IMG/VR virus record: IMGVR_UViG_3300025254_000001
Strand: one strand, 5' to 3'
Origin: a virus
Length of the DNA stretch: 64,000 bases
Below are positions 4,624-62,449 of this stretch, piece by piece. Positions within the stretch are counted from its first letter, which is position 1, and each line of letters starts with the position of its first letter. The translations under genes were made by a program, and so were the position numbers. Below the pieces are notes generated by a model. That model did not search any database. It saw nothing but the letters and a program-made list of their open reading frames with translations, and had not been told where the DNA came from.

Positions 4624-6234
4624 GTGCGACTCCTCGGCTTCGACATCAGCCTGCGCCGAAAGAGCGCGGCCCCGGCCGGCCTGGTGCCGCTGGGCTCCGC
4701 GGTCTGGGGCTGGCTCCGAGAGCCGTTCGCGGGTGCCTGGCAGCGCAGCGTGCAGCAGGACGGGCATGAGGCGCTGCTGGCGTTCGCCGCGGTCTTCGCG
4801 TGCGTCTCGCGCATCGCCTCGGACATCGCCAAGCTGCGCGTGCGCCTCGTCCAGCAGGACGGCGCCATCTGGGATGAAGTCACCGCGCAGTCGCCATTCT
4901 GGGGACCACTGCGCAAGCCCAATAGCTACCAGACGCGAATCCAGTTCCTGACGTCGTGGGTGATCTCGAAGCTGCTCTACGGAAACACCTTCGTGCTCAA
5001 GGTGCGCAACGACGCGCGAGGCCTGGTCACCGAGATGCACGTGCTGCATCCGCGCCTGGTCACGCCGCTGGTGGCCGAGGATGGCTCGGTCTACTACCGC
5101 CTGGGCGCCGACATGCTCGCGGAGAAGCCACTCGGCGACACGGTGCCGGCCAGCGAGATCATTCACGACCGCGGCATGACGCTGTTCCACCCGCTGGTGG
5201 GGGTCTCGCCGATCTACGCCTGCGGCGCCGCGGCCACGCAGGGCAACCGCATCCAGAGCAACAGCGCGCGGTTCTTCGAGAACATGAGCCGGCCGTCCGG
5301 CATGCTGACCGCGCCGGCCAGCATCACCGACGAGACGGCTGCGCGCCTGAAGCGCGAATGGGAAGAGAACTTCTCGGCCCAGAACATCGGACGCGTCGCG
5401 GTGCTCGGCGATGGGCTCAAGTACGAGACCATGACCATCGACGCGGTCGACGCGCAGCTGATCGAGCAGCTGCGGTGGACCGGCGAGGACGTCGCGCGCG
5501 CGTTCGGCGTGCCCGGCTACAAGATCGGCGTGGGCCCCATGCCCCTGAACAACAACGTCGAGGCGCTGGAGCAGCAGTATTACACCGGCACCCTGCAGAC
5601 CCTCATCGAGAGCATCGAGGTGCTGCTCGATGAGGGCCTGGAAATGCCCACCGGCATGGGCAGCGAGTTCGATCTCGATGGCCTGCTGCGCATGGACACC
5701 GCCACCATGTACGACTCGCTCGGCAAGGTGGTGGGCGCCGGGATCATGGCGCCCAACGAGGCGCGCGCGCGCGTGAACCTGGCCGGCGTGGCCGGCGGCG
5801 ATACGCCGTACATGCAGCAGCAGAATTGGTCGCTCGCGCAGCTCGATCGCCGCGACATCGTGGCCGACAAGCCGGGCGTCGCCTCGCCGCCGGCGCCGGC
5901 GCCCATGCCCGCCGGCACGCCGGCCGCCGCGCCGCCGCCGCCCGAGCCGAGCAAGGCGCTGGTCGAGAGCGTCGAAAAGACCGTCTCGCAGCTCGGTGAG
6001 CTGACGCAATCTGTCCAGGCTTCGGCCGACCGCTCGGCGCTCGCCGAGGCCTCGGTCAAGTCGATGCTGGAGTCCGCGCTCGCGGACATTCCCGCGGCCG
6101 TCAAGTCGGCCGTGGCCGAGCGCGCGGCCGAATTCGCAGGCCAGCGTGACGAAGACGAGGACGACGGCACCTCGGAGCTTTGCAAGCGCGGCCTGCATGC
6201 GGGCTTCAAGGAGATGCTTTATGCGCCCCGCTGA
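4624..6234 (+). CDS. Portal protein (HK97 family-like)
   Basis: 536 aa with portal-like motifs (LLYGNTFVLK, VSPIYACG, ARFFENMSRPSGML, EDVARAFGVPGYKIG). GTG start immediately after the upstream stop. Confidence 0.85.
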   Translation: MRLLGFDISLRRKSAAPAGLVPLGSAVWGWLREPFAGAWQRSVQQDGHEALLAFAAVFACVSRIASDIAKLRVRLVQQDGAIWDEVTAQSPFWGPLRKPNSYQTRIQFLTSWVISKLLYGNTFVLKVRNDARGLVTEMHVLHPRLVTPLVAEDGSVYYRLGADMLAEKPLGDTVPASEIIHDRGMTLFHPLVGVSPIYACGAAATQGNRIQSNSARFFENMSRPSGMLTAPASITDETAARLKREWEENFSAQNIGRVAVLGDGLKYETMTIDAVDAQLIEQLRWTGEDVARAFGVPGYKIGVGPMPLNNNVEALEQQYYTGTLQTLIESIEVLLDEGLEMPTGMGSEFDLDGLLRMDTATMYDSLGKVVGAGIMAPNEARARVNLAGVAGGDTPYMQQQNWSLAQLDRRDIVADKPGVASPPAPAPMPAGTPAAAPPPPEPSKALVESVEKTVSQLGELTQSVQASADRSALAEASVKSMLESALADIPAAVKSAVAERAAEFAGQRDEDEDDGTSELCKRGLHAGFKEMLYAPR

Positions 6235-7438
6235 CATTGCCGACCTGCTGAAGGCGCTCGCGATCGACGTGCGCGACTTCGTCGGGTCGTCCAGCGACGT
6301 GCTCGCCAAGCGCATCGACGCCTTGGACCAGCGGCTCGGCGAGCTGCCGGCGCCGATGGATTCCGACGCCGTCGCCAAGCTGGTGGACGCCCAGGTCACC
6401 CGCGCCCTCGGCGACTTCGTCGTGCAGGGCCTGGAGCAGGTCATCGAGCGCCTTGCCGCGGTCGAGGCGCGCGCGCCGGTTGACGGCCAGAAGGGAGACA
6501 AGGGCGATCCGGGTGAGCCGGGCGCCGCCGGCGCCGATGGCCAGGACGGACGCGATGCCGACCCCGCGGTGATCGTCGAAGAGGTCCAGCGCGCGGTCGC
6601 GGCGCTGCCCAAGCCCGCGGACGGCAAGGATGCCGACGCTGATGAGATCGCCGGGCGCGTGCTCGCCGAGGTGGTCAAGCAGATCCCGGAGCCGGTCGAC
6701 GGCAAGGATGGCCGCGACGGCGTGGACGGCAAGGATGGCGTGAGCGTCGACCTGGCCGAGATCCAGCGCATGGTGGACGCCGCGGTCGCCGCGCGCCTGG
6801 CCGAAGCGCTGGCCGCGCTGCCGGTGCCCAGGAATGGCCTGGACGGCAAGGACGGGCGCGACGGCAAGGACGGCCGTGATGGGCTCGATGGCGCCGATGG
6901 ACGCGATGCGCTGCAGCTGGAGGTGCTCGACGCGCTCGACGTCGAAAAGCGCTACCCGCGTGGCACCTTCGCGTCCTGGCGCGGCGGCCTCATCCGTTCG
7001 TTCCGGGCGACCGATCCGCTCAAGGACGCGCCCGAGCTGGAAAAGGCCGGCTGGGCGGTCGTCCTCGACGGCTTCGCCGGCCTCGACTCGACCGAGGGGA
7101 GTGACATGCGGAATTTCGGGCTGTGCTTCATCCGCACGACGGGCAAGGAGCAGACGCTGTCGTTCTTCTCGGCGGCGATGATCTGGCGCGGCATCTGGAC
7201 GGCCGAGCGCGACTACGAGCGCGGCGACGCGGTCACCTACGACGGCAGCATCTGGCACTGCGAGCGCCCCACCAGGTCGCGGCCGGGCACGCCGGCGAGC
7301 GCTGACGACTGGAAGCTCAGCGCCAAGCGGGGCCGCGATGGCAAGGACGGCCTCAAGGGCGAGAAGGGCGACCGTGGCGCCGAAGGCCGGCCTGGTCGCG
7401 ACCTCACGCAGCTCGGGTTCGACGGCAAGAAGACATGA
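6221..7438 (+). CDS. Collagen-like (Gly-X-Y) repeat protein with C-terminal CBM5/12-like motif
   Basis: Several GXY runs (GDKGDPGEPGAAGADGQDGRD; GKDGRDGVDGKDG; GLDGKDGRDGKDGRDGLDGADGRD; GRDGKDGLKGEKGDRGAEGRPGRD). Also a GDAVTYDGSIWHC...DDWKL motif. Strong SD AAGGAG 7 nt upstream of ATG 6221. Confidence 0.75.
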   Translation: MRPADIADLLKALAIDVRDFVGSSSDVLAKRIDALDQRLGELPAPMDSDAVAKLVDAQVTRALGDFVVQGLEQVIERLAAVEARAPVDGQKGDKGDPGEPGAAGADGQDGRDADPAVIVEEVQRAVAALPKPADGKDADADEIAGRVLAEVVKQIPEPVDGKDGRDGVDGKDGVSVDLAEIQRMVDAAVAARLAEALAALPVPRNGLDGKDGRDGKDGRDGLDGADGRDALQLEVLDALDVEKRYPRGTFASWRGGLIRSFRATDPLKDAPELEKAGWAVVLDGFAGLDSTEGSDMRNFGLCFIRTTGKEQTLSFFSAAMIWRGIWTAERDYERGDAVTYDGSIWHCERPTRSRPGTPASADDWKLSAKRGRDGKDGLKGEKGDRGAEGRPGRDLTQLGFDGKKT

Positions 7439-8049
7439 CAGCTGCCTTCACGATCGCGCGCCTGTGGCCGGAAGAGACCGTCGCGGTGCTGGCCAGCGGG
7501 CCGAGCATGTCGGCCGACGTCGCCCGCCAGGTGTTCGACGCGATGGTCCCGGCGATCGTCATCAACAACACCTTCCGGCTGGCGCCCTGGGCCGGCATGC
7601 TCTACGCGGCCGATGGCGCCTGGTGGCGCGCGAACCCTGACGCGCTCGCCTTCCGCGGCCTCAAGGTCACGGTCGACGACGTCGCCGGCACGCGCAAGCT
7701 GCGCATCAGCGGTCCCGGCGGGTTCGACCCGCACCCGGGCGCGGTGCGCTCGGGCGGGCACAGCGGCTACCAGGCGGTGCACATCGCGATCCATGGCGGC
7801 GCGCGCCGCATCCTGCTGTGCGGCTTCGACATGCACGGCACGCACTGGCACGGGCCGCACGTCGAGCCCCTGCGCAACACCGCAGCCGGCACCTATGGGC
7901 GCTGGGTCGAGCGCTTCGCCGAGCTACAGGAGCCGGCCCGGGAGCGCGACATCGAGATCCTGAATTGCACGCCGGGCAGCGCGCTCAAGTGCTTCCCGAT
8001 GGTCGACCTGGCCGACGCGCTGGCCGAGCGAACATGCGCCGCGCGCTGA
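7435..8049 (+). CDS. Putative glycosyltransferase-like protein (DUF115/sialyltransferase-like GPS motif)
   Basis: 204 aa. LASGPSMS...VINN...YAADGAWW...SGGHSGYQAVHIAI..LLCGFDM pattern. ATGA overlap with the collagen-like gene stop. The family call is tentative. Confidence 0.4.
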   Translation: MTAAFTIARLWPEETVAVLASGPSMSADVARQVFDAMVPAIVINNTFRLAPWAGMLYAADGAWWRANPDALAFRGLKVTVDDVAGTRKLRISGPGGFDPHPGAVRSGGHSGYQAVHIAIHGGARRILLCGFDMHGTHWHGPHVEPLRNTAAGTYGRWVERFAELQEPARERDIEILNCTPGSALKCFPMVDLADALAERTCAAR

Positions 8050-10936: not shown

Positions 10937-11608
10937 ATGCTGCACGTCTTTTTCGGCCACGACGAGCGCGCGGAGGCCGGAACCACCGCGTTCATGCACT
11001 CGGTGATCGCGCGCGCGACGCAGCCGCTTGCGTTGACGCCGATCACGCGTCTGGCCACGGCCGGCGTCAAGCAGGGCAGCAACGCGTTCACGTTCCGGCG
11101 CTTCCTGGTGCCGTGGATGCTCGACTACCGCGGCTGGGCGGTGTTCGTCGATGGCGCCGACATGCTGTGCCGTGCCGACATCAGCGAGCTGTTCGACCTG
11201 GTCTATCACAACGATGCGGTGCGGGTGGTCAAGCACGCGTACCGCACGCGGCACCCGCGCAAGTACCTCGGCACGCCGATGGAGTGCGACAACCCGGACT
11301 ATGAGCGCAAGCAGTGGGCCAGCGTGATGCTGATCAATTGCTCGCACTACGCCTGGCGCCACGTGACGCCGGAGTTCGTGGCCGAGTCGAATGCGCTGGA
11401 CCTGCTGCAGCTGCGGTTCATCCCGGCCGAGCGCATCGGGTCGTTGCCCAAGGAGTGGAACTGGCTCTGCGATGAGGACGGCGAGAACGTCGACGCGAAG
11501 CTGCTGCATTTCACCGCGGGCATCCCGGCGTTCCCCGAGCACGCGCGCGCGCCGATGGCCGAGGAGTGGCGCGCGGCGCTGCGCGCCTCGTCCACCGCAA
11601 CAGGCTGA
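10937..11608 (+). CDS. Glycosyltransferase family 8-like protein
   Basis: 223 aa with GT8-like layout (HVFFGHDE..., VFVDGADMLCRADISELF, LLHFTAGIP). Confidence 0.55.
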   Translation: MLHVFFGHDERAEAGTTAFMHSVIARATQPLALTPITRLATAGVKQGSNAFTFRRFLVPWMLDYRGWAVFVDGADMLCRADISELFDLVYHNDAVRVVKHAYRTRHPRKYLGTPMECDNPDYERKQWASVMLINCSHYAWRHVTPEFVAESNALDLLQLRFIPAERIGSLPKEWNWLCDEDGENVDAKLLHFTAGIPAFPEHARAPMAEEWRAALRASSTATG

Positions 11609-11613
11609 AAGCC

Positions 11614-12294
11614 ATGAGCAACCCCAAGATCATCACCTACCCGACCACCGAGCCGATCACGCTCGAAGAGGCGCACCTGCACCTGCGGCTCGATGTCTAC
11701 GACAGCCCGCCGGTGCACCCCGACGATCCGCTGATCCTGGGACAGATCACGGCCGCGCGCGAATGGGTCGAGAAGTTCACCGGCCGCTGCATCGTCCCGT
11801 GCGTGCTGGAGCTGGCGCTCGATGACTTCCCGCACCACCAGCGCAGCAGGCATCGCTTCACGGGCTGGCTCGCCCATGCGTACCACCTGGTCGACGGGGG
11901 CTGCGCGATGCCGATCCGGCTTCCGGGCGGCCCGGTCGTCGCGCTGGAGAGCGTCACCTACGTGGACGCCGCGGGCGTCGAGCAGACCTTGACCGACGTC
12001 CAGTTCGACACCCACGAGGAGCCGGCGCGCGTGCTGCCCGCGGTGGGCGCGACCTGGCCGGTGGCGCAGCAGCAGATGGCGGCCGTGCGCGTGCGCTACG
12101 CCGCCGGCTACAGCGCGCCCGGCGACTCGCCCAACCCGGCCCCGCTGCCCGTGCCGATCAAGATGGCGATGCTGCTGGTGCTCGGGCACCTGTACGAAAA
12201 CCGCGAGAACACGACCGACGTCGCGCTGACCGAGGTGCCGCTGGGCGCCGTCGCGCTCTTGCGGCCCTACCGGCTCGAATCGGCGATGGCCTGA
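11614..12294 (+). CDS. Head-tail connector (gp6-like) protein
   Basis: 226 aa. The N-terminal ITLEEAHLHLRLD motif is typical of gp6-like connector / DNA-packaging proteins. It is the last gene of the head block. Confidence 0.65.
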   Translation: MSNPKIITYPTTEPITLEEAHLHLRLDVYDSPPVHPDDPLILGQITAAREWVEKFTGRCIVPCVLELALDDFPHHQRSRHRFTGWLAHAYHLVDGGCAMPIRLPGGPVVALESVTYVDAAGVEQTLTDVQFDTHEEPARVLPAVGATWPVAQQQMAAVRVRYAAGYSAPGDSPNPAPLPVPIKMAMLLVLGHLYENRENTTDVALTEVPLGAVALLRPYRLESAMA

Positions 12295-12325
12295 CGCCCG
12301 CCGGCGGTCCATCAGCAACCTCTAC

Positions 12326-12500
12326 GCGCCGGCCGCGGCGGTAGGCAAGGGCAATCGATCGGGTTTTCCGATCCTCGCGGCCTGGCGGTAGGCGGCGACT
12401 AGGCAATTCGTCTGGCCTATGCGCGGGCCAGGCACCGTAGGCGGTGCCAATCGGTTGATTTCAGCTAAGTCCGCGGGTTGGCGGTAGGCGGAATCTGTCG
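12326..12500. repeat. Four iteron-like direct repeats, core GGCGGTAGGC
   Basis: Cores at 12337, 12384, 12433 (CACCGTAGGC) and 12480, spaced 47/49/47 bp. Most are followed by CAATCG/CAATTCG. Confidence 0.65.
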
Positions 12501-12605
12501 ATGAATTGCAGCTATAAACGCCGACCTGAATTAGACCGGAGTAATCGGCTCCGGCGGCCAGGGCGCAAAAATAATATCTATCCTCGGCGGCTCGAATTAG
12601 TTCAC

Positions 12606-12804
12606 GCCAAAAATATCGGCGCGCGGATTTAATAGACCTCAGCTTTTGCACAATATTTAAGCGGTGCACTTCTAAGCTATTGATTTAATTGAGAAAAACG
12701 TCTTCGATAGCTGAGTTTTCGCGAGGTGGGTAAGGGGGTTGTGGGGCCAAAGCGAAAAATCGCTTGGCGGGCCTTTACGCGCGTTTTAGCGGGGTGTGAT
12801 TTCG
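12606..12804 (+). repeat. AT-rich non-coding element, copy A (paralog of 56172-56348)
   Basis: Aligns with copy B: GCCAAAAAT..CGGC..TTAA..CTAAGCTnTTGATTT..TCGAnAGC..AGGTGG.AAGGGGTT.T.GGGCC..CGAAAAATCGC..TTTACGC. Indels break any common reading frame. Confidence 0.7.
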
Positions 12805-12907
12805 CACAGTAGTTCGCCGGCGCGCGTCGTGCAATTAATTGAAATCTTGAGCGGAGAGACTTGACAATGGCCGGAATTCGTTGGCGGTTTGCGCGAGTGG
12901 GGTCGGC

Positions 12908-13270
12908 GTGAGGGCCGGCCAGCTCAACGCCCGCCTGGTGGTCGAGCGCCCCGGGGTGTCGCGCGACGACATGGGCTCCGAGCTGATCACGTGGGTGAAG
13001 GTCGCCACCGTCTGGGCGCACATCGCGCCGATCGTTCCCGCGCGCGGGCGCGAGCCGCTGCTGGCCGACCAGCTCCAGGGCCAGGCCGACACCCGGATCA
13101 CGATCCGCTGGTCCGATCAGATCGACGGCATGTCGGCCAAGTGGCGCCTGCGCTTTGCCACGCTCAAGAACCCGATCATCTACAACATCGCGACGCCGCC
13201 CGCGCAGCTCGACATGGGCCAGCGCACGGTCGTCATCATTTGCAAATCCGGCGTCAATGAGGGGCAGTGA
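12908..13270 (+). CDS. Head-tail adaptor (head-closure) protein
   Basis: About 120 aa. AGQLNARLVVERP...WVKVATVWAHI...RITIRW pattern is typical of SPP1 gp16/HK97-like adaptors. GTG 12908 preferred over TTG 12881. Confidence 0.7.
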   Translation: MRAGQLNARLVVERPGVSRDDMGSELITWVKVATVWAHIAPIVPARGREPLLADQLQGQADTRITIRWSDQIDGMSAKWRLRFATLKNPIIYNIATPPAQLDMGQRTVVIICKSGVNEGQ

Positions 13271-25946: not shown

Positions 25947-27391
25947 GCTATCAGCAAGTCGCGGACGGGCAGGTCCACCCGGAAGTGCCGATCAACGAGA
26001 ACATGGCCGCGCTCGGGCAGGCGTTCGTCTTCTCGCACGATGTCACTGCCGACTCGGGCCTGGTGGTGGGGATCAATGGTGGGAATTTCGACGTCGCCAC
26101 GGTGGCCGATACGACCATCACCGCCACGGACAACACGACGAACTATGTCGTCGCCCATCGCACCACCCATGCCGTCACCACCGCGACGGCGACCACGAAC
26201 TGGAACAACACCGGGACGTATGGACGCGTCGGGCGTGCCGTGTTCGCCTCGGGCGTCCTGACCTGGCACGACGAGCGCTATAGCGCGGGCGGGATCTTCG
26301 ACCATGCCGCGACGCTGGGCGGCGGCACTGTCACGAGCGTGGCCGCCACGGTCCCGAGCTGGCTCTCTGTCAGCGGTTCCCCGATCACCAGCAGCGGCAC
26401 GCTCGCCATCACGGCCGCGACGGGACAGGCCGCGAACCAGGTGCTCGCCACGCCGGACGGCTCGACCGGCGCCGCGTCGTTGCGCGCCCTGGTCGCAGCC
26501 GACGTGCCCACCCTCAACCAGAACACGACGGGTTCTGCCGCGACGCTCACGACGTCGCGCAACATCGATGGGCAGGCGTTTAACGGCTCGGCGAACATCA
26601 CGGTCATCGCCCCGGGCACGCACGCGGCCAGCAGCAAGTCGACGCCGGTCGACGCCGATGAGATGCCGCTCGCGGATTCGGCGGCGTCCTTCGTGCTGAA
26701 GAAGCTCACGTGGTTGAACCTCAAGGCCACGCTCAAGACCTACTTCGACACCCTCTATGGCTCTGGCTCGGGTTCGGTGACCAGCGTCGCCGCGACCGTG
26801 CCGAGCTGGCTGTCGGTGAGCGGGTCGCCCATCACGACGTCCGGCACCCTCGCGATCACCGCGGCCAGCGGGCAAACCGCCAATCAGTTCCTCGCCACTC
26901 CCAACGGCTCGACTGGCGCGGTGGGCCTGCGAGCGATCGTGGCGGCCGACGTCCCGACGCTGAACCAGAACACCACGGGCTCGGCGGCCACGCTCACCAC
27001 CGCACGCACGATCGGCGGAACGTCGTTCGATGGCAGCGCCAACATCACGCAGCCGTTCGACGTCCAAGGCTTCTATCCGGGCGTCCCTACGGCATCGGCC
27101 AAGGTCTTGCGGGTGCCGATCGCGCGCGCCGTGACGTTCGCTGCAAATTTCGCCGGATCGTATTTCTCGGCATCGGCCAACGCGACGGGCTCGACGGTGT
27201 TCGATGTCCAGCAGAACGGATCGTCCATCGGATCGATCACCATCGCTGCCGGCACCACGACCGCGACGTTCACCACCACCAGCGGCACGAGCAAGACGTT
27301 CGCGGCTGGCGACGTGTTGATGATCGTCTGCCCCGGCACCCCGGACGCCACGCTGGCCGACCCGGGATTCGTCTTGGCGGGGACGCGTTAA
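25943..27391 (+). CDS. Tail fibre protein with internal tandem duplication
   Basis: 482 aa. A ~90-aa module (VTSVAATVPSWLSVSGSPIT..LNQNTTGSAATLTT.R.I.G..F.GSANIT) occurs twice. Confidence 0.7.
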   Translation: MSYQQVADGQVHPEVPINENMAALGQAFVFSHDVTADSGLVVGINGGNFDVATVADTTITATDNTTNYVVAHRTTHAVTTATATTNWNNTGTYGRVGRAVFASGVLTWHDERYSAGGIFDHAATLGGGTVTSVAATVPSWLSVSGSPITSSGTLAITAATGQAANQVLATPDGSTGAASLRALVAADVPTLNQNTTGSAATLTTSRNIDGQAFNGSANITVIAPGTHAASSKSTPVDADEMPLADSAASFVLKKLTWLNLKATLKTYFDTLYGSGSGSVTSVAATVPSWLSVSGSPITTSGTLAITAASGQTANQFLATPNGSTGAVGLRAIVAADVPTLNQNTTGSAATLTTARTIGGTSFDGSANITQPFDVQGFYPGVPTASAKVLRVPIARAVTFAANFAGSYFSASANATGSTVFDVQQNGSSIGSITIAAGTTTATFTTTSGTSKTFAAGDVLMIVCPGTPDATLADPGFVLAGTR

Positions 27392-43570: not shown

Positions 43571-43594
43571 CGCCCGGTAAAGCCGGGCGTTTTT
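43571..43594 (+). terminator. Hairpin plus T-run after the tRNA-His fragment
   Basis: CGCCCGG-TAAAG-CCGGGCG followed by TTTTT. It would terminate the reconstituted tRNA gene after integration. Confidence 0.5.
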
Positions 43595-44805
43595 CATGGT
43601 CTGGGGAATTCCTGGGGAATTTTCGGGTCGGCGCCCGCTGCCTGGGCTGCCTGGGCCGCGCCCAGCGTGCGTTCGAGCTTGGCCATCTCGACCTGGTCGC
43701 CCGCGCCAGGAATCCACTTGGCGTAGGTGCTGAGAAACACCTCGACGCTGTGGCCCATCTGGCCGGCGCAGAACGCCGGGGTCATGCCCGCCATCAGCAT
43801 CATCGTCGCGTAGGTGTGGCGGGTGTTGTAGGGCTCGCGGTAGCGGATGCCCAGGCGCTTGAGGGTCGGCTTCCAGAACGACCGGCCGTAGGGGCGCACG
43901 CCCTCCCAACGCACGCCGTAGCGCGGATCGTGGAACACGTGCCCGCCGGCCAGGGAGGTGTGGGCCCGCTGGCGCGTCAGCGCGGCCAGCGCTCGGCTGT
44001 TGAGGTGCAGCCGGCGCGCCGTGTCGGTCTTGGTCCGGTCGACCTCCTCGCCCTGGACGACGCCTTCGACGATCGAGACGTAGCCTGAGCGCAGGTCGAC
44101 GTTGGGCCAGCGCAGGCCGAACGCCTCGCTGGTGCGCAGGCCCATGTAGAACTTCGCCTCGGTGAAGTTGACCACCTGGGCGTCGTAGTGCGCGGCCATG
44201 TCGGCGATGATCAGATCCGCCTCGGCCTGCGTGAAGGGGTCGATCTCCGGCCGCTGCCACTTGGCGCGCGGGATGTTCTCGGCCGGGTTGTCCGTCAGCA
44301 GCTTGTCCAGCACCGCGAGCGCGAGCGCCTCGCGCAGCACGCTCACGTAGTTGTTGACGGTCTTGCCCGACAGGCGGCGCTTGGTGGCCAGGGCGAGCAA
44401 GAGGTCGCTGGTCTTGAGGCTGCGCAGCGCTCGCTCGCCGAGCGGCATCTTGGCGCCTTCGGGCTGGGCGTTCGACCAGAACGTGACGGCCGACTTGTAG
44501 CTGTTGTGTGTACTGGTGGCGATGCGCTGGGCGGCCAGCCAATTCTTCAGCTGGGTAGAGAGGGTGGTCTGCGCGGCGCCGGCGCCGCTGGCCGGGAAGA
44601 ATTCGGCCATGCTGAACCGGTCGTGCGCGATGGCATCGCGAATGTCGTCGGCCAGGCGCGCCGCGTACTTGATGTTGGCTGGCGTGGGCGCCATCGGCGC
44701 GCCGTCGACCATCAGCGTGCGCTTGATGGGCGTGCCGTCGAGGATGAATGTCAACCGGAGCGAGTTCTCGCGAATCTCGACGCCCTTGGTCTTGGCCTTG
44801 GTCAT
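43594..44805 (-). CDS. int: Tyrosine integrase
   Basis: 403 aa. RHTYATMMLMAG and LSTYAKWI catalytic-region motifs, with an N-terminal arm-binding-type domain. Confidence 0.9.
   Translation of the reverse strand: MTKAKTKGVEIRENSLRLTFILDGTPIKRTLMVDGAPMAPTPANIKYAARLADDIRDAIAHDRFSMAEFFPASGAGAAQTTLSTQLKNWLAAQRIATSTHNSYKSAVTFWSNAQPEGAKMPLGERALRSLKTSDLLLALATKRRLSGKTVNNYVSVLREALALAVLDKLLTDNPAENIPRAKWQRPEIDPFTQAEADLIIADMAAHYDAQVVNFTEAKFYMGLRTSEAFGLRWPNVDLRSGYVSIVEGVVQGEEVDRTKTDTARRLHLNSRALAALTRQRAHTSLAGGHVFHDPRYGVRWEGVRPYGRSFWKPTLKRLGIRYREPYNTRHTYATMMLMAGMTPAFCAGQMGHSVEVFLSTYAKWIPGAGDQVEMAKLERTLGAAQAAQAAGADPKIPQEFPRP
43601..43622 (+). repeat. Arm-type integrase-binding candidates (P' arm): CTGGGGAATTC, CTGGGGAATTT
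   Basis: Tandem 11-mers related to the P-arm repeats and in the same orientation. They lie within the int 3' end. Confidence 0.5.
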
Positions 44806-51497: not shown

Positions 51498-51525
51498 TTG
51501 ACGCGCGGTAATCCGTTGCTACGTT
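51498..51525 (+). promoter_or_regulatory. Rightward early promoter candidate (TTGACG, 16-nt spacer, TACGTT)
   Basis: The spacer contains the inverted operator core AATCCGTTGC (51510-51519). Confidence 0.45.
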
Positions 51526-51533
51526 GCAGAGGG

Positions 51534-51818
51534 GTGAACACCTTCGCACCCCTCGCCGATCTGCCGCTGGATGAAGACGTCCGGCGCCTGCTTGAGGCCC
51601 ATCGCGGCCAGTGGAAAACCATCGCCCATGCCTCGGGCGTGAGCTACTCCTGGCTCTCCAAATTCTCGCGTCGCACGATCTCGAACCCGGGATTCGCGAC
51701 CCTGCAGCGCCTGCGCTTCTGCCTCCTGCAGGCGCCGCTGCCGCCGCGGTTGCCGCCCGTGCCGCCGCCCGCCGCCCGCCTGCCTGCCAACCTGCCCGCC
51801 GTCGCGAGTGCGAAATGA
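51534..51818 (+). CDS. Cro/CII-like HTH protein
   Basis: About 94 aa. WKTIAHASGVSYSWLSKFSRR helix-turn-helix. Start uncertain: GTG 51534 would be near-leaderless; TTG 51498 is the alternative. Confidence 0.5.
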   Translation: MNTFAPLADLPLDEDVRRLLEAHRGQWKTIAHASGVSYSWLSKFSRRTISNPGFATLQRLRFCLLQAPLPPRLPPVPPPAARLPANLPAVASAK

Positions 51819-52737
51819 TCGCGTCGACCTCTCCGGGGGTGACGGCGTGATCGTCGACCCCGACTTCCTCGACCACTGGCGCACTGGCATGGTGGTCGAC
51901 GCGTTGGCCGACCCGATGGCACCGCTGTACATCCTTCGCCTCTGGGCCCATTGCCAGGAGCGCAGGTCGGACACGTTCGTGATGCCGGCGCGCGGCGTCA
52001 AGTCGCAATGCAAGTGCCCGGCCGATGCCGACGTCTTCGAGGCCGCGCTCATCGAGGCCGGCTTCCTGAAGCGCGATGGCGCCACGATCACCGTGCTCGG
52101 CTGGTCTGAGAAGAACGCGTCGCTGCTCGCCGCATGGAAGAACGGCATCAAGGGTGGCCGTCCCAAAAAGAACCCAGATGAAACCCCTGGGAAACCCACC
52201 GGTAACCCAGCCCGAACCCAGCCCGAACCCATGGGCAACCCAGACGAAACCGATAAGAGAAGAGAAGAGAAGAACTCTCCTTCACTACGTTCAGGAGAGG
52301 ACCCGGCGCGCAAGCGCGCTACCCCTGCGCCCGTCGAGATCGTGCCGGCCTCGGTGCTCGTGGCGGCTGGATTCGATGCCAAGACCGCCTCGGACTTCAT
52401 CGCGCACAAGGCTGCGCACAAGGCGCCGCTGACGCCGCGGGCGTGGGCCGACCACCAGCGCGAGGCGCTCAAGGCCGGCTGGACGCCGGTGCAGGCGGCC
52501 GAGAAGGTCATGGCCAAGTCCTGGAAGGGCTTCGAGGCGAAGTACGTCCGTGACGAGCACCCGCCGACGCGCCACGGCCCGCTGATCGAGACCTTCCGCC
52601 AGCGCGACGAGCGCGACGCCGCTGAGAAGGTGGCCTTCCTCACCGGCCGCCTGCCGGGCAATGGCGCGGCCCGCCCGGCGCAAGCCGACTTCATCGACGC
52701 CGAGGTGACCGATGTCACTCCCCGACAGCTGGGTTGA
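51808..52737 (+). CDS. Replication-organiser protein with DnaT-like C-terminal domain
   Basis: About 300 aa. The C-terminal LVAAGFDAKTASDFIAHKAAHKAPLTPRAWADHQREALKAGWT resembles phage DnaT/O-type domains. Start uncertain. Confidence 0.45.
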   Translation: MRNDRVDLSGGDGVIVDPDFLDHWRTGMVVDALADPMAPLYILRLWAHCQERRSDTFVMPARGVKSQCKCPADADVFEAALIEAGFLKRDGATITVLGWSEKNASLLAAWKNGIKGGRPKKNPDETPGKPTGNPARTQPEPMGNPDETDKRREEKNSPSLRSGEDPARKRATPAPVEIVPASVLVAAGFDAKTASDFIAHKAAHKAPLTPRAWADHQREALKAGWTPVQAAEKVMAKSWKGFEAKYVRDEHPPTRHGPLIETFRQRDERDAAEKVAFLTGRLPGNGAARPAQADFIDAEVTDVTPRQLG

Positions 52738-53185
52738 TCGGATCTTCCTGCGCCTGGCCACCACCTACGGCCAGGCGTTCCTTCGCCAGTACGACGGCAT
52801 CGACCTGGCCGAGGTCAAGGCCAACTGGGCGCGCGAGCTGTCGGTGTTCCAGCAGGCGCCCGACGCCATCGCCTACGGCCTGGATCACCTCCCGCCCGAT
52901 CGCGCGCCGACCGTGCTGCAGTTCCGCGACGCGTGCCGCCGGCCGGTCGAACACACGGCCAGCGCGCCACGCCTGCCGGCGCCTGCGCCCGATCCGAAGG
53001 TCGTCCGCGCGATCCGCGAGGCCTGGCGGCCGGTGGGCTCCGGCGGCCCGCGCGCGTGGGCCGATCGGCTGCGCGAGCGCGAGGAGCGCGGCGAGAACCT
53101 GACGCTGTTCCAGCGCGCGGCCTGGCGCGCGGCGCTGGCCACCGAGCTGCAGGCCGAACAGCACGAGCCCGAGGAGGCGCTCTGA
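52712..53185 (+). CDS. Hypothetical protein (replication module position)
   Basis: 157-aa ORF. Confidence 0.5.
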   Translation: MSLPDSWVDRIFLRLATTYGQAFLRQYDGIDLAEVKANWARELSVFQQAPDAIAYGLDHLPPDRAPTVLQFRDACRRPVEHTASAPRLPAPAPDPKVVRAIREAWRPVGSGGPRAWADRLREREERGENLTLFQRAAWRAALATELQAEQHEPEEAL

Positions 53186-53811
53186 TGGAACTTGTCCTCT
53201 ACAACGCGATGTGCCGCACGATCGCCGAATGCCATGCGGTCGACGAAGCCCTCGACATCAAGGACAAAGCGCGCGCGCTGGAGGTCTATGCCATGCAGGT
53301 GCGCAACGTCGAGGCCGAGCGCAAGGCGTGCGATGTGCGCCTTCGGGCTGAGCGGCGCGTCGGCGAGCTGCTGAAGGAGCTTTCGCGCTCAGAGACGGCA
53401 GGCGGTGGCGACGTGAAATCGGCTCCCAAGCGTGCGGAGCCGATCCACCCTTCACCCTATGCCCAGGCGCTTGCGGACACCGGCATCAGCACGCAGAGCG
53501 CGAGCCGCTACCAGCGCCTTGCCGACGTGCCGCAAGCCGAGTTCGAGGAAGCGCTCCGCGCGCCAGAGGTGAAACCGAGCACGACGCGAATCATTGCCCA
53601 GGCCCGCGATCCGGTGCCTCGGATGAGTGAGGACGCCCTGTGGCTGTGGGGTCGCGCACGCGATTTCGAGCGCGGCGGCTTCGCGCAGATGGACGCGCAG
53701 CTGCTGCTGCAGGGAATGACGGACGCGATGCAGGCCGACATGCGCCGCATCGCGCCGGCGATGGCCGATTTCTTCAATGCACTTGCCGAGGTTCCCCATG
53801 AGCTTGCGTGA
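53185..53811 (+). CDS. Conserved phage hypothetical protein
   Basis: 208 aa. SD GAGGAGG. 1-nt TGATG overlap with the upstream gene. Confidence 0.55.
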   Translation: MELVLYNAMCRTIAECHAVDEALDIKDKARALEVYAMQVRNVEAERKACDVRLRAERRVGELLKELSRSETAGGGDVKSAPKRAEPIHPSPYAQALADTGISTQSASRYQRLADVPQAEFEEALRAPEVKPSTTRIIAQARDPVPRMSEDALWLWGRARDFERGGFAQMDAQLLLQGMTDAMQADMRRIAPAMADFFNALAEVPHELA

Positions 53812-54250
53812 AAAGATCCTCCAGCAGATGGCGCGCGCGGTCGACGAAATGCGCGGCGCGATTCGCATCTCGCCGACCACGGTGGCGATGCATGTGTTCG
53901 AGTTCTATTCCCGCAACCCGGGCTTTGATGAACACCTGGCCTACGCCTCGATCGAGCACCTGAAGCAGCTTGCCCGCAGCCTGCTCGCTCGCCAGCATGA
54001 GCCCGAGCAGCGCGCTCGCGTCATGCTCGATGAGCAAGGCGACTTCTTCGGCGAGCTGCTGCAGGATCGCTACCCGATCAAAGTGCCGCGTGGTGAAGAG
54101 CCGCAGTACCAGCTGCGCCAGTTCATGTCCAACGACGACGTGCAGTGGAACGTGATCCGCATGCGCAAGGTCGGTGCATCGCTTCTGCGCCACGCCGACG
54201 CACTGGAAGCCTGGGATCAATCGCGCGGTGGCCATGAGGTGCCGGCGTGA
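53798..54250 (+). CDS. Hypothetical protein
   Basis: 150 aa from ATG 53798. Confidence 0.45.
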   Translation: MSLREKILQQMARAVDEMRGAIRISPTTVAMHVFEFYSRNPGFDEHLAYASIEHLKQLARSLLARQHEPEQRARVMLDEQGDFFGELLQDRYPIKVPRGEEPQYQLRQFMSNDDVQWNVIRMRKVGASLLRHADALEAWDQSRGGHEVPA

Positions 54251-54801
54251 TTTCCTTCGTCATCCTCGGCGAGCCCGCCAGCAAGGCCAACAGCCGCGAG
54301 TTGGCCACGATCGGCCCGAAGGACGCGCGCCGCACGATCCTGCGCAAGTCGGACAAGGCCTTGACCTTCGAGGACGACGCGCGCCGGCAGATCCCGCCCG
54401 CCGCCCGCCAGCGCCTGGTCGGTCCGGTGAGCGTGACGCTGCGGATCTTCTACGCCAGCGAGCGGCCCGACCTGGACGAGTCGATCGTCCTGGACGTCCT
54501 GCAAGACCGCTGGGTGCGCACGCAGGTCCAGCCCGAGCGCCACTCGATCGACGCCGAGGGTCGGCACACCATGACTTCGGCCGTCACCGGACGCGTGCTG
54601 GTGCAAGCCGGCGTCTACCGCAACGACCGCCAGGTGCGCGAGAAGCACGTGTTCCATGGCATCGATCGCGCCAACCCGCGCACCGAGGTCGTCATCGAGC
54701 CGCTGCAGCCGCAGCAGGTGTCGTTCCTTGAGGACGACGGGGTCAGGTCGGTCGCGCGCCCCTTGAAGTCGCGGCCCAACACCGAGAAAGCAACCGCATG
54801 A
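54247..54801 (+). CDS. rusA: RusA-like Holliday junction resolvase
   Basis: 184 aa. GEPASKANSRE and RPDLDESIVLDVLQ patterns. GTGA overlap with the upstream stop. Confidence 0.5.
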   Translation: MISFVILGEPASKANSRELATIGPKDARRTILRKSDKALTFEDDARRQIPPAARQRLVGPVSVTLRIFYASERPDLDESIVLDVLQDRWVRTQVQPERHSIDAEGRHTMTSAVTGRVLVQAGVYRNDRQVREKHVFHGIDRANPRTEVVIEPLQPQQVSFLEDDGVRSVARPLKSRPNTEKATA

Positions 54802-55085
54802 GCTACTCCTTCAAAGTCCGTGGCGTCGACAAGGGCCACACCAAGGATCACGTCGCCGCCGAGCTGCTGCGCGTGGTCGCCACCCAGCCGATGCACCACC
54901 GCGACAGCCAGCTCGCGCTGGCCGCCGCGACCGCCTTCATCGACCTGATCCATGACGACGCCACCAAGGACATCGGCGTCACCGTCAGCGGCTCGCTGGG
55001 ATGGAACGGCTCGTCGCCCGACGAGCAGATCACGACCGGCAACGTCAGCGTGTCGGTCTACCTCGTGGACAAGGACGCTGCCTGA
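54798..55085 (+). CDS. Hypothetical protein
   Basis: 95 aa. ATGA overlap with the upstream stop. Confidence 0.5.
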   Translation: MSYSFKVRGVDKGHTKDHVAAELLRVVATQPMHHRDSQLALAAATAFIDLIHDDATKDIGVTVSGSLGWNGSSPDEQITTGNVSVSVYLVDKDAA

Positions 55086-55088
55086 GCC

Positions 55089-55349
55089 ATGGAGACCTGC
55101 CCGGATTGCGTGGCCGCCAGCAAGCGGCTCTGGGGCCAGTACAGGGCCGACTGCGTGGTGTGCTCTGCACGGCACATCGCGCGCGGCCCGGTCTGCGCCG
55201 AGGCCGCCAAAGCCGGCCGGATCACCTCGCCCTACCGGCGCCAGCTGGAAGACGTCGTGGGCCAGCGGCACTGGTTCGCGCTGCATGGCGTGGTCACCGC
55301 CTGGCTCAACGGCCACGCCCACGATGTGGTGCCGACCTGGCCGTACTGA
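55089..55349 (+). CDS. Hypothetical Cys-containing protein
   Basis: 86 aa. N-terminal CPDCVA...CVVC motif. Confidence 0.5.
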   Translation: METCPDCVAASKRLWGQYRADCVVCSARHIARGPVCAEAAKAGRITSPYRRQLEDVVGQRHWFALHGVVTAWLNGHAHDVVPTWPY

Positions 55350-55351
55350 GG

Positions 55352-55555
55352 ATGGGCGTCGCGATGGTCGCCGTCTCGATGAATCCCCGCGTTGAGCTGG
55401 TCAGCTGCCGTGACGGCTGCGGGCTCCAAGCCACCGCCGAACAAGCCGAACACCAGGGCTGGACGCTGCTGGCCGTGCAAGGTCGGTGGCGCTGCCCAGC
55501 CTGCGCGCTCGCTCTCAGGCGAGCGAGCGAACCCGCCCCGCAACCAGCATCGTGA
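55352..55555 (+). CDS. Small zinc-ribbon-like protein
   Basis: About 67 aa. CRDGCG...CPAC motif. Start uncertain (55352 or 55364). Confidence 0.4.
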   Translation: MGVAMVAVSMNPRVELVSCRDGCGLQATAEQAEHQGWTLLAVQGRWRCPACALALRRASEPAPQPAS

Positions 55556-55568
55556 AGGAGGACTGAAC

Positions 55569-55958
55569 GTGCAGCACGCCATCAACAACGACGACGTCAT
55601 CCTCAACGACTTGCTCGGCCGCTGGCACCGCTGGGCCTGCGATTACCGGACCGCGGTGGGCTACCCCTCCGCTGCCGCATACCTGGCGCAGTACCGGACC
55701 AGCCGCCAGTACGACGACGTCAACGGCGCCCTGGACGGCGACGTCGAGAACTGCATCATGAGCGGCGTGGACGGCTGCCTGAATTCCGTGCCCCAGCCCT
55801 ACCGCAACGCGCTGCACCTGAACGCGCGCAACCTGGTCACCGGCCTGACGGTCTGGCGCTCGCCGCGCCTGCCGGTCGACGACATGGAGCGCGCGCAAAT
55901 GGTGGCCGAGGCCCGCGCGATGCTGATCAAGCGCCTGCGCGTCCGGGAAATGCTGTGA
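55569..55958 (+). CDS. Putative late-gene regulator, Q-like antiterminator (QuuD/phage-82-type pattern)
   Basis: 129 aa. GTG start with strong SD GAAGGAGGA. LLGRWHRWA...YPSAAAYL echoes LERWGAWA...SSIAAGF of Q-type antiterminators. It is the last gene of the early-right operon and is followed by a terminator. Confidence 0.45.
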   Translation: MQHAINNDDVILNDLLGRWHRWACDYRTAVGYPSAAAYLAQYRTSRQYDDVNGALDGDVENCIMSGVDGCLNSVPQPYRNALHLNARNLVTGLTVWRSPRLPVDDMERAQMVAEARAMLIKRLRVREML

Positions 55959-56043
55959 TCGAGCAGCCGGTCGAGTCGTAATTCCCAGCCCGGCGCTTGA
56001 CACGCAGGACCGCGCCGAATTACATTTTCGCCCGAGGCCACCA

Positions 56044-56078
56044 GCCGCGACCACGTCCGACGTGAACGCGGCTTTTTT
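56044..56078 (+). terminator. Intrinsic terminator ending the early-right operon
   Basis: Long imperfect hairpin GCCGCGACCACGTC-C-GACGTGAACGCGGC followed by TTTTTT. Confidence 0.65.
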
Positions 56079-56096
56079 GTGCCCAATTAACCCGTG

Positions 56097-56117
56097 ATTC
56101 GTGGCACAGAAAACGAG
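56097..56117 (-). promoter_or_regulatory. Degenerate copy of the island promoter motif (ATTCGTGGCACAGAAAACGAG)
   Basis: Together with the following ~30 nt it aligns with 56964-57012. The -10 equivalent is weak (ACGAAT). Confidence 0.3.
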
Positions 56118-56171
56118 CCTGCGGGATTAATTTCACCTATGACGCAGCGCCTGGCCGGCCATGCGGGAATT

Positions 56172-56348
56172 GCCCAAAAATGCGGCATTGCCCAATTAAG
56201 TGGCAGGGCATTCCTAAGCTGTTGATTTGGTGGAAGAAAACCCCCTCGACAGCGCTCTTATCGCAAGGGTGGCAAGGGGTTAGTAGGGCCGATCCCGAAA
56301 ATCGCGGTACGCAGGGTTTACGCCCCGATGCGAGGAAGTGTCGATTTT
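56172..56348 (+). repeat. AT-rich non-coding element, copy B (paralog of 12606-12804)
   Basis: Aligns with copy A over about 180 nt. It lies between the + terminator (56044-56078) and the - terminator (56393-56421). Confidence 0.7.
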
Positions 56349-56392
56349 CTATGGGCTGGGCCGTCGTTGCGTTGTCGGCTCGCCGGCAGCTC

Positions 56393-56421
56393 GGCGAAAA
56401 GGAAACCCGCCGCAGCGGGTT
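56393..56421 (-). terminator. Intrinsic terminator (minus strand)
   Basis: AACCCGC-CGCA-GCGGGTT hairpin. The minus strand continues TCCTTTTCG. Confidence 0.55.
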
Positions 56422-56436
56422 GTGCCTGATGGCCTG

Positions 56437-56963: not shown

Positions 56964-56985
56964 ATTGTGGCACAGGAAAAGAGCC
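56964..56985 (-). promoter_or_regulatory. Island promoter motif copy (minus strand CTTTTCCTGTGCCACAAT)
   Basis: TGn-extended -10-like CACAAT upstream of gene 56674-56937. Confidence 0.5.
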
Positions 56986-57568
56986 TGCGGCGCTAAATGC
57001 ACCTATGGGCGGACTGCAGCCATCCCAGTTCCTTGATCGGTGCTGGTGGATCGAGGCTCTAGAGGGCCGGACGCGTTTAGAAGCCCGTAGCCGAACTCGA
57101 ATCGGTGGCTGTGGGTAAGGGTTGGGAGGTCGACGATCGCCGTCTACGCGCCCGATACGCGCGTTGGTTTGGCGCCATAGACCGACCTGCCTGGCCTGCT
57201 GGCCGACCTGCACGCCGCGCCCGCCAGCCCACTCGCTCCGGTCCGGTCGCCCAGCCCAGCCCGTCCAGCTCGGCGTCGCCTATCGCTGCTGCTGCACCAT
57301 CTGTGGCCTGGCCATCGCCGCTGCCCGCCCATCCACCCTGCCTATCGGTGGGGGGCCTGCCGCACACCCTGGTCATCCCCACGCTAGAGCGGCGTCGAGG
57401 TGTTGCGCACGTGGCCGAGGGTTGGCGAGGGGGTGGTTTGCAATTGCCCCAGCAAGGCCCATAGGTGGTCCTGCAGTGGGGTCGGTGAGGCGGGCAGGTA
57501 GTCCAGGGGTTGCCTGGGCCTGCCGAGGTCCCGCAGGGCCCATCCCGGGCCTCGGCGGGGCATTGACG

Positions 57569-57824: not shown

Positions 57825-57844
57825 AACTGTAGCACAAGATAAAC
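57825..57844 (-). promoter_or_regulatory. Island promoter motif copy (minus strand TCTTGTGCTACAGTT)
   Basis: TGCTACAGT extended -10-like sequence upstream of the RHH-like gene. Confidence 0.45.
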
Positions 57845-59297: not shown

Positions 59298-59653
59298 GAT
59301 GGGCTCCTCGGTTGGGTGGTGGGCTTGTCGGTCCAAGCCGCGAACAGCCTTGGGCCGTACACCCGGCTGTTGCGCGTGATGCGAAGGCAGGCGTGCCAGG
59401 TCTGGAAGGAGCTGTAGTCGCCCCACCAGTTCGGATGATCGTCTAGGCGCTGGAAGGCGTCGCCGAGCGTGCTGCGCTGCAGCTCTGTCCTGCGCGGCAT
59501 CGACTCGAACAGCGACACCACGGACGCCGCGATGTCGGCTGGCGAGGTGTTGACGTCGACGACGCGGGCGACCTCCTTGAGGCCGTCGACCAGCTGCCTG
59601 CAGAGCTTGTCGAGCGCGCGCCCGCGCAGCTCGTCGGTGCGATAGCGGCTCAC
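59294..59653 (-). CDS. Hypothetical protein
   Basis: 119 aa from GTG 59653, with a GTGA overlap with the DUF488 gene stop. Confidence 0.45.
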   Translation of the reverse strand: MSRYRTDELRGRALDKLCRQLVDGLKEVARVVDVNTSPADIAASVVSLFESMPRRTELQRSTLGDAFQRLDDHPNWWGDYSSFQTWHACLRITRNSRVYGPRLFAAWTDKPTTQPRSPS

Positions 59654-60033
59654 AGCAGCACTCCCTGCCGGGACTCCGGCCTGGCGATCTCGAACTCCGG
59701 CACCTCGATGTGCAGCTCGCGCTCGAACCACGCCGCGACCAGGCGGCGATGGCACCAGTTCGTCTCGGTGAACGGCGGCTTCTCGTAGCACAGCAGCACC
59801 GGCTCGGCGCCGGCGGCCAGCTCCATCAGCTTGTCGTGCACGACCTTCGGATCGAGCAGCGCCAGCTGTTCGGCGTACAGGCGCTCGTACTCCGGGCGCG
59901 TGACGCTGTTGAACCACGCCCCCGGCGCCAGCGGCTTGAAGATGCGAAAGCCTGCCGGCGTCGAGCGCGGCGGGAAACGCGAGATCGACACGCGACCCGG
60001 GCCGGTGTAGGTGAAGAACGAAGCGGTTTTCAT
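59650..60033 (-). CDS. DUF488-family protein
   Basis: 127 aa. GRVSISRFPPR...LAPGAWF...VLLCYEKP...WCHRRLVAAWF pattern. SD AAAGGA. Confidence 0.6.
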   Translation of the reverse strand: MKTASFFTYTGPGRVSISRFPPRSTPAGFRIFKPLAPGAWFNSVTRPEYERLYAEQLALLDPKVVHDKLMELAAGAEPVLLCYEKPPFTETNWCHRRLVAAWFERELHIEVPEFEIARPESRQGVLL

Positions 60034-60064: not shown

Positions 60065-60081
60065 TTGTAGCACAGAAAAGT
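60065..60081 (-). promoter_or_regulatory. Island promoter motif copy (minus strand CTTTTCTGTGCTACAAT)
   Basis: TGCTACAAT extended -10, with TTGCCA 18 nt upstream as a -35. About 32 nt upstream of ATG 60033. Confidence 0.55.
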
Positions 60082-62307: not shown

Positions 62308-62325
62308 AATTGTAGCACAGAAAAG
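62308..62325 (-). promoter_or_regulatory. Island promoter motif copy (minus strand CTTTTCTGTGCTACAATT)
   Basis: Identical 17-mer to the copy at 60065-60081. Confidence 0.55.
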
Positions 62326-62449
62326 CCATGGCGGACTATGGCGCGTGAAGGAATTTTCGATGTCCCACTGCTGCTGTCGCTGCTGCTGCCAGTGCTCTCT
62401 CGCCGAAATCTCGGCACTCCTTGCAACCCTTGTTCAAAAGGTAACCACC

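Follow-up and report, generated by a model that had tools for sequence, protein, structure and literature searches.

IHF-centred nucleoprotein sites are known from phages and plasmids, and include the H sites of lambda attP, the I1 site of lambda cosB and replication origins of the pSC101/P1 type. Phage genomes also harbour “morons”, extra transcription units that are inserted between conserved late genes. Dispersed, IHF-binding intergenic repeats include the enterobacterial RIP/BIME-1 and the Neisseria Correia elements, and are the subject of a review (PMC3184786). Finally, Frpo/ssi single-strand promoters lie upstream of genes and adopt a long imperfect hairpin, which mimics -35 and -10 promoter sequences (PMC11541004).

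Here we describe a non-coding element that occurs twice in a viral DNA sequence of 64,000 nucleotides (termed the window). We compare its copies with each other and with copies from related genomes, discuss whether the element is better understood as a DNA site or as a folded RNA, and outline how it relates to the systems listed above.

Genome organization and accessory region

The window represents a high-GC (about 68%) temperate siphovirus-type genome, and the same phage is found in many metagenome assemblies as contigs of 61-66 kb. Names such as Ramlibacter and Betaproteobacteria on homologues of its DUF488 protein suggest a Burkholderiales-like host. The landmarks used below are:

426 to 2063: terminase gene
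4624 to 6234: portal gene
11566 to 12294: head-tail adaptor gene
43594 to 44805, minus strand: integrase gene

The adaptor gene is followed by a head-closure gene, and tail genes run to about 28.7 kb. A RecT gene is present, a rightward early operon extends from 51498 to 55958, and the region from 56.4 to 64 kb is occupied by small leftward accessory genes, which include genes for DUF488, DUF932, DUF6011 and a methyltransferase-like protein. The accessory genes show a recurrent upstream sequence: TTTTCTGTGC[TC]ACA[AG]T is found on the minus strand at 60066-60081, 62311-62326, 56966-56981 and 57828-57840, in each case immediately upstream of leftward genes, and looks like an extended -10 promoter lacking a -35 element. 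Between two leftward units lies a GC-rich stretch of about 560 nt (57008-57568) with no credible open reading frame (ORF). Repetitive sequences also occur elsewhere in the window. Among the small leftward genes after the tail module, a direct repeat of 273 nt is 73% identical (26330-26602 and 26777-27049), and collagen-like GDGKDG-type nucleotide and peptide repeats (6590-7380) are located inside the gene at 6146-7438.

A dispersed non-coding element

The two copies of the element in the window have the same orientation:

12582 to 12834, plus strand: copy A, non-coding element with a core at about 12640-12815, delimited by an nhmmer profile match of 227 bits and by alignments
56143 to 56400, plus strand: copy B, non-coding element, delimited by an nhmmer profile match of 175 bits, blastn and a shuffle test

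With a word size of 7, blastn produced a co-oriented alignment of 12646-12780 and 56188-56323 (137 columns, 67% identity, E value 2e-12). Smith-Waterman alignment of the two intergenic gaps scores 43, compared with 12 for the reverse-complement control and 11.9±1.4 (maximum 17) for 500 dinucleotide shuffles. An nhmmer profile made from several copies stretches the homology to the limits given above. The alignment of about 180 nt that had been proposed in the original prediction is thus right or slightly short, since the profile extends the homology in both copies. The accompanying claim that no ORF is shared also holds: stops occur in all six frames at positions that differ between copies, and none of the six copies now known is coding. 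By sequence comparison, A and B are genuine copies of a non-coding element of about 200-250 bp, and further examples of it are carried by related phages and genomic islands.

Four further, independent copies (C, D, E and F) were found in related phage and island contigs, bringing the total to six. Copy C, located between a 70-aa gene and a DUF488 gene (contig L153), was detected by scanning metagenomes with a degenerate pattern. Because the window itself encodes a DUF488 homologue (59650-60033), DUF488 served as an anchor for copy searches. This approach yielded copies D (L164/L169), E (L176) and F (L174), the last in a context that looks chromosomal; E and F came from two additional DUF488 anchors. 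About 30 other DUF488 loci, covered with five other anchors, are devoid of the element, and the 72-aa and 87-aa neighbour proteins as anchors returned only loci already found. BLAST searches with both regions and copy C produced no match in 72,556 plasmids and 50,697 phages. Patterns of 15-20 nt gave mostly chance matches in viral contigs, an over-strict DNA pattern gave only two chance matches in genome contigs (L002 and L003), and a literal motif search of the literature retrieved only unrelated primers.

The six copies fall into three subfamilies (A/C, B/E and D/F), and their cores are 52-83% identical. Across subfamilies the overall identity is only 52-70%, and conservation is strongly block-wise. 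All copies are intergenic and have a GC content below that of their surroundings (0.49-0.59 versus 0.63-0.68). The element is present twice in the window and as a single copy elsewhere. Two independent assemblies (L006 and L008) break exactly at the right edge of copy A, with contig starts that correspond to a window position of about 12825, a pattern that is expected if a two-copy element confuses assemblers.

The gene neighbourhoods of the copies share certain features. Copies B, C, D and E each have a converging operon of small accessory genes at their right end. At the left end of copies C and F there is a divergent gene, and the upstream gene is co-directional for copies A and D. No gene is consistently found downstream of the element on either strand. 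Five of the six contexts include a DUF488 gene at a distance of no more than 4 kb, and related contexts carry genes for ArdA, RadC, DUF932, ParB-like proteins and orphan methyltransferases. About 700 nt from copy C, a gene for an IS200-like Y1 transposase with a C-terminal HTH (L153, 3207-4115) was noticed; no such gene is present near the other copies.

The conserved block as a putative IHF site

The conservation profile of the element peaks at a nearly invariant block, C[TC]AAGC[TA][AG]TTGATT, which reaches 1.8 of 2 bits. This block is the reverse complement of the IHF consensus WATCAANNNNTTR, as established in work on E. coli and lambda. The corresponding features of the window are:

12673 to 12685, minus strand: exact IHF consensus AATCAATAGCTTA of copy A, located where conservation peaks
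12691 to 12699, plus strand: A-tract GAGAAAAAC of copy A
56215 to 56227, minus strand: exact IHF consensus AATCAACAGCTTA of copy B, with the A-tract GAAAAC at 56236-56241
12448 to 12460, minus strand: third exact IHF consensus of the window, upstream of copy A within tandem units described below

The reverse complement of the E. coli/lambda consensus WATCAANNNNTTR is matched exactly in six of six copies. The block reads AATCAATAGCTTA in copy A, AATCAACAGCTTA in copies B, C, D and E, and AATCAACTGCTTG in copy F, and its variable columns all coincide with degenerate (N or R) positions of the consensus. In all copies an A-tract, GAAA[AG]C or GAAAAAC, is found at a fixed distance of 7-9 nt from TTGATT. 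An A/T tract 5' of the core at a distance of about one helical turn corresponds to the geometry of an IHF site such as lambda H'. Exact matches to the consensus occur three times in the 64-kb window, compared with 0.10 expected; none of 100 shuffles reached three, and all three matches fall within the two AT-rich regions. The related loci (8-10 kb each) contain no more than two matches, one of them being the site in the element. Conservation also extends to the blocks TGC[AC]C-AA, TT[TA]TCGC[GA], a G-rich run ending in GGCC, and AAAA[TA]CGC.

Several motif families (sigma-54, DnaA, dif, ops and IHF) were compared by eye, and therefore some multiple testing applies to these matches. A sigma-54 promoter (GG-N10-GC with TGGCAC/TTGC) was rejected, since the K-G-G-C-A-C N4 AAGC arrangement is spaced one base too close; the sigma-54-type GG is, according to the alignment, not kept in copies A and D. 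A XerCD/dif-like site showed only a weak resemblance by eye and was likewise discarded, as was a G-quadruplex in the G-rich run, where four GGG runs are not conserved.

The best-conserved part of the element looks like an IHF site rather than an RNA hairpin, and the element is therefore most likely a DNA-level module. A protein-binding DNA site was one of several candidates in the original prediction, and the exact consensus at the conservation peak now makes it the favoured one. We tentatively read the element, drawing on six independent copies, as an IHF-bent nucleoprotein DNA site at the borders of accessory cassettes, probably with a regulatory or insulating role, and regard this as a serious possibility.

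In the proposed scheme, a portable, AT-rich element of about 200-250 bp would work as double-stranded DNA and not as folded RNA. Its centre would be a bipartite IHF site, in which WATCAANNNNTTR on the minus strand is accompanied by an A/T tract at a distance of 7-9 bp. Binding of host IHF to this centre would sharply bend the DNA, and the bend would bring together the left blocks (TGCAC-AA ... GCAC) with the right blocks (TTTTCGCG, the G-rich run ending in GGCC, and AAAATCGCG). A second, putative sequence-specific protein would bind the left and right blocks. The resulting nucleoprotein complex at the cassette border would most probably control or insulate neighbouring transcription units. We infer the binding of IHF, the existence of a partner protein and an output at the level of transcription; neither a partner protein nor a promoter regulated by the element was identified.

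Copy A and a possible DNA-processing site

Copy A had been placed inside the late operon, and it is indeed located between the head-tail adaptor gene and the head-closure gene, as part of a discrete insertion:

12295 to 12907, no strand assigned: ORF-less insertion of 613 bp with a GC content of about 52%, from the adaptor stop to the true head-closure GTG start
12337 to 12527, plus strand: four tandem units of about 47-48 nt, each starting with GG[CT]GGTAGGC, in the left part of the insertion
12839 to 12868, plus strand: sigma-70-like promoter TTGAAA-18-GACAAT at the right end of the insertion, facing the head-closure gene

The true start codon of the head-closure gene is the GTG at 12908. 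In a sister phage lacking the insertion (L009), the adaptor stop and the head-closure ATG are only 4 nt apart, and the head-closure protein is 91% identical to that of the window. The right part of the insertion is copy A and the left part consists of the tandem units. No plausible or conserved ORF was found in the 613 bp, and no accessory gene lies beside copy A. The whole insertion is present in the closest variant of the window (L001) at 91-94% identity; the promoter at 12839-12868, which lies outside the conserved element, is conserved there as well.

The starting sequence of the tandem units is exactly GGCGGTAGGC at 12337, 12384 and 12480, and in each unit it is followed by a CAATCG-like word. 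The units also carry GGCGGTAG, which matches the RfaH ops consensus over its initial 8 nt, on the non-template strand of the late operon. In the entire window GGCGGTAG was observed 8 times, compared with 1.5 expected.

The layout of this insertion bears on an alternative that we consider unlikely, namely that the element is a cis-acting DNA-processing site, such as a replication origin, a transfer origin, or an attachment or recombination site. IHF would then be an architectural cofactor, and the neighbouring repeats would bind a dedicated Rep protein, relaxase or recombinase. Insertion A is arranged like an iteron-type origin, with four tandem units of about 48 nt, two IHF consensus sites and an AT-rich stretch. 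Moreover, the only perfect DnaA box (TTWTNCACA) of the 64 kb lies within copy A (12644-12652), 20 nt from the IHF consensus. However, the iterons are found only beside copy A, and the DnaA box, which matches at 7-8 of 9 positions in copies C, D and F, is not kept in B/E. As a shared feature of the element the DnaA box was rejected, being perfect in copy A only, and an iteron-type origin is not borne out, given that copy A and its flank are the sole location of tandem units and a perfect box and that no rep gene is adjacent. The element is not an essential phage origin, because sister phages lack both copies at these positions.

A transfer origin would fit the direction of the accessory operons at copies B, C, D and E, which are transcribed towards the element and in this respect resemble the “leading region” beside a plasmid oriT. 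Enriched leading-region genes were reported exclusively on the T-strand (PMC11541004), and leading-region genes are therefore, by our own inference, transcribed towards oriT. The genes for ArdA, RadC, DUF932, ParB-like proteins and orphan methyltransferases in related contexts also fit a DNA-processing site, and so do the CGATAGGCC/CTATCG words, which are repeated beside the core in copies D and F. On the other hand, no gene for a Rep protein, a relaxase or an extra recombinase adjoins any copy, no relaxase gene was seen in the window or the loci, and the plasmid and phage collections gave no BLAST match. A DNA-processing site is also disfavoured by the lack of terminal inverted repeats and target duplications, neither of which was found at the junctions of insertion A. 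The sole end-to-end inverted repeat of the insertion (12286-12306 and 12815-12835) includes the adaptor stop region, which is present in an uninserted relative too, and a MITE/Correia-like element was rejected on these grounds.

The hairpin and the RNA interpretation

The element has also been considered as a structured RNA, since both copies in the window can form a similar inverted repeat:

12675 to 12712, plus strand: inverted repeat of copy A, 9 pairs and a 20-nt loop, the 5' arm of which overlaps the IHF consensus
56217 to 56254, plus strand: inverted repeat of copy B, 8 pairs and a 20-nt loop

In copy A, AGCTATTGA (12675-12683) pairs with TCGATAGCT (12704-12712) in 9 pairs including one G.U, and in copy B, AGCTGTTGA (56217-56225) pairs with TCGACAGCG (56246-56254). 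The original prediction gave exact coordinates and the correct loop length of 20 nt for both hairpins; its figure of 9 bp applies to copy A, but copy B has only 8 pairs because the outermost A/G is unpaired. The double change from A-T in copy A to G-C in copy B is real. The caution with which it was presented, a single covarying pair being suggestive only, turned out to be justified.

According to this reading, the plus strand would give rise to an RNA element, i.e., a cis-acting leader, a processing signal or an sRNA, in which the hairpin of 8-9 bp is functional; we judge it rather improbable. Five sequences (A, A2, B, C and E) preserve the stem; one of its pairs is A-U, G-C or G.U (copy C has G.T there), and one G.U is retained in all five. 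Short windows around the hairpin fold at z scores of -2.0 to -3.3 in copies A, B and C, the consensus fold of four sequences is more stable on the plus strand (-21.6 kcal/mol) than on the minus strand (-8.8 kcal/mol), and both window copies are oriented with late transcription. The A-U/G-C/G.U series in A, B/E and C is real; it reflects three independent events, and not all copies possess the stem. Copies D and F keep the 5' arm (CTAAGCTGTTGATT and CCAAGCAGTTGATT), but their 3' arm is replaced by unrelated sequence, and the hairpin is missing from this entire subfamily. Across the copies, conservation is highest in the 5' arm (1.8 bits) and close to its lowest in the 3' arm (about 1.0 bit), which fits a sequence-specific DNA site and not a stem.

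The larger alignment also argues against an RNA. With seven sequences, the plus-strand consensus energy falls to -10.5 kcal/mol with an unfavourable alifold covariation term of +2.4 kcal/mol, and the covariation score of the hairpin together with a second candidate helix (TTTTCG/CGAAAA) was equalled or exceeded in 44 of 500 column shuffles. Whole-element folding does not exceed that of shuffled sequences, the two window copies having z scores of -0.35 and -1.57 (plus strand) and of -1.59 and -0.42 (minus strand). Rfam gave no match at gathering thresholds in the whole window, and only chance-level hits for both copies at E values up to 10. Furthermore, C, D, E and F lack an upstream operon in the orientation of the element, which would be needed for its transcription. 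With the hairpin absent from one of three subfamilies, the 3' arm among the least conserved segments and Rfam silent, the structured RNA put forward in the original prediction is not sustained.

A conserved sigma-70-type promoter or terminator was found neither in nor beside the core on either strand of the six copies; non-consensus promoters in the element are possible. An independent sRNA gene was rejected, since a conserved promoter of its own and a Rho-independent terminator are both missing. Two minus-strand signals were also discarded: an intrinsic terminator at the AAAATCGC block is convincing in copy F only, and a promoter TCAACA-17/18-TAATTT over the IHF site is plausible in C, D and F and not in A, B and E, and was not called by the promoter scan.

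Relic or gene-free cargo

Rather improbable as well is the notion that the element is a functionless relic, an old intergenic spacer that is co-carried when accessory cassettes recombine between phages and islands, with the IHF-like word being a leftover or a coincidence. In its favour, the core of the window and of L001 is 91.5% identical, close to the 90.9% identity at third codon positions of the flanking genes, and therefore most of the element may drift almost neutrally. Sister phages do without the element, its copy number is low, and conserved transcription signals are lacking. A relic does not, however, readily account for the block-wise conservation, nor for a near-invariant 15-nt block that fits a known consensus position by position. 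Similarly, the gene-free insertion carrying copy A sits in a tightly packed late operon and was kept in at least two diverged lineages.

Still more doubtful is an identity as an ORF-less “moron”, in which a portable DNA site would act in cis and allow another replicon or protein to work on the phage genome. It would be made up of an IHF site and protein-binding repeats, with iterons in copy A, and would have been planted in the late operon and at the edge of an anti-defence-like accessory island. A helper or satellite might use it in trans as an origin or as a site of transfer or recombination; alternatively, it might serve as a decoy that titrates a host or rival initiator. Insertion A is discrete and separates genes that adjoin in L009, as in a moron; a gene with its own promoter and terminator was not found in it, the only such signal being the promoter-like site downstream.

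Surroundings of copy B

The following signals flank copy B:

55997 to 56026, plus strand: promoter TTGACA-18-TACATT, PR'-like by position, right after a 129-aa gene and the same in sister phages L013 and L209
56043 to 56079, plus strand: hairpin and U6 terminator, left bound of the copy-B gap (-23.5 kcal/mol, z score -3.1)
56101 to 56141, minus strand: degenerate copy of the promoter region 56967-57007, 83% identical over 41 nt
56404 to 56421, minus strand: terminator of the leftward 87-aa/51-aa unit, right bound of copy B

Both terminators that were predicted to bound copy B are present. The left one had been assigned to the end of the early operon; it follows the promoter at 55997-56026 and therefore looks like a late-promoter/tR'-type terminator instead. 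Together, the 129-aa gene, the promoter and the terminator resemble the lambda PR'/tR' arrangement. The same order, i.e., 129-aa gene, TTGACA-18-TACATT promoter, and hairpin with U6 about 45 nt downstream, is conserved as a Q/PR'/tR'-like module in the window (55569-56079), L013 (4001-4480) and L209 (8270-8763). Neither Pfam nor PHROG gave a match for the 129-aa protein, and the designation “Q-like” is therefore purely positional.

A Q-utilisation or late-promoter module, another of the original candidates, was rejected as an explanation of the element: the promoter (55997-56026) and terminator (56043-56079) exist, but lie outside the repeat. In sister phage L013, the promoter-terminator module leads straight into an HNH gene and the element is absent. 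In sister phage L176/L209, which carries the orthologous copy E, about 370 nt more separate the module from the element.

The degenerate promoter copy at 56101-56141 points leftwards, away from copy B, and has an intact equivalent in L209. As an observation in its own right, the promoter copy (56100-56141; L209 at about 7845-7900) aims at the 3' end of the 129-aa gene and at the PR'-like promoter and terminator that follow this gene. It and its L209 equivalent might be a source of antisense (“anti-Q”-type) RNA.

Significance and comparison with known systems

If IHF and a partner protein assemble on the element, it would represent a reusable non-coding “boundary” part that is exchanged along with accessory, possibly anti-defence, cassettes among temperate phages and genomic islands of Burkholderiales-like bacteria. 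It would also provide an example of a gene-free insertion maintained in a phage late operon, and would bear on the annotation of phage regulatory DNA and on the wiring of mosaic accessory regions. No current view would be overturned. At present, the main lesson is that one compensatory pair between two copies does not prove a structured RNA.

Compared with the described systems, the element resembles Frpo/ssi single-strand promoters (PMC11541004) in being non-coding, in its size range of 200-300 nt, and in its association with small accessory or anti-defence-type genes that form arrays. In contrast to these promoters, it lies downstream of the arrays and folds like shuffled sequence; a Frpo-like promoter was rejected for its position and the lack of excess folding.

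With the processive antitermination RNAs and sites HK022 put and lambda nut/qut the element shares the presence of two copies in one phage, both oriented with late transcription, one of which (copy B) is close to a promoter-terminator pair after a possible Q gene. Unlike these sites, it has no conserved two-stem structure or significant covariation, the L013 promoter-terminator module lacks it, and copies are also found outside phage operons and antisense to their neighbours. The likeness to morons concerns copy A, which is part of a discrete insertion of lower GC content between head-tail genes that abut in a sister phage, and has a promoter-like site at the downstream edge of that insertion. 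Yet, the 613 bp harbour no ORF and are not flanked by a terminator.

The RIP/BIME-1 and Correia repeats are, like the element, non-coding, dispersed and intergenic, often located between convergent genes, and carry an IHF consensus in their middle. The element differs from them in having neither REP palindromes nor terminal inverted repeats or target duplications; it is longer, has a very low copy number, and resides in accessory regions of phages and islands instead of being spread chromosome-wide. A RIP/BIME-type repeat was accordingly rejected, with no GC-rich REP pair around the IHF site and few copies.

A further parallel concerns the IHF-centred sites of phages and plasmids. In contrast to these, the element does not adjoin the integrase gene (43594-44805), the terminase gene or a gene for a replication initiator. 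Sister phages can dispense with it, it occurs twice in one genome and also in unrelated contexts, and no recombinase core site, cos site or Rep gene was identified at it. It agrees with them in being an AT-rich stretch of about 200-250 bp in a GC-richer genome, with an exact WATCAANNNNTTR core and an A/T tract, flanking words that are conserved or repeated, and tandem repeats beside copy A.
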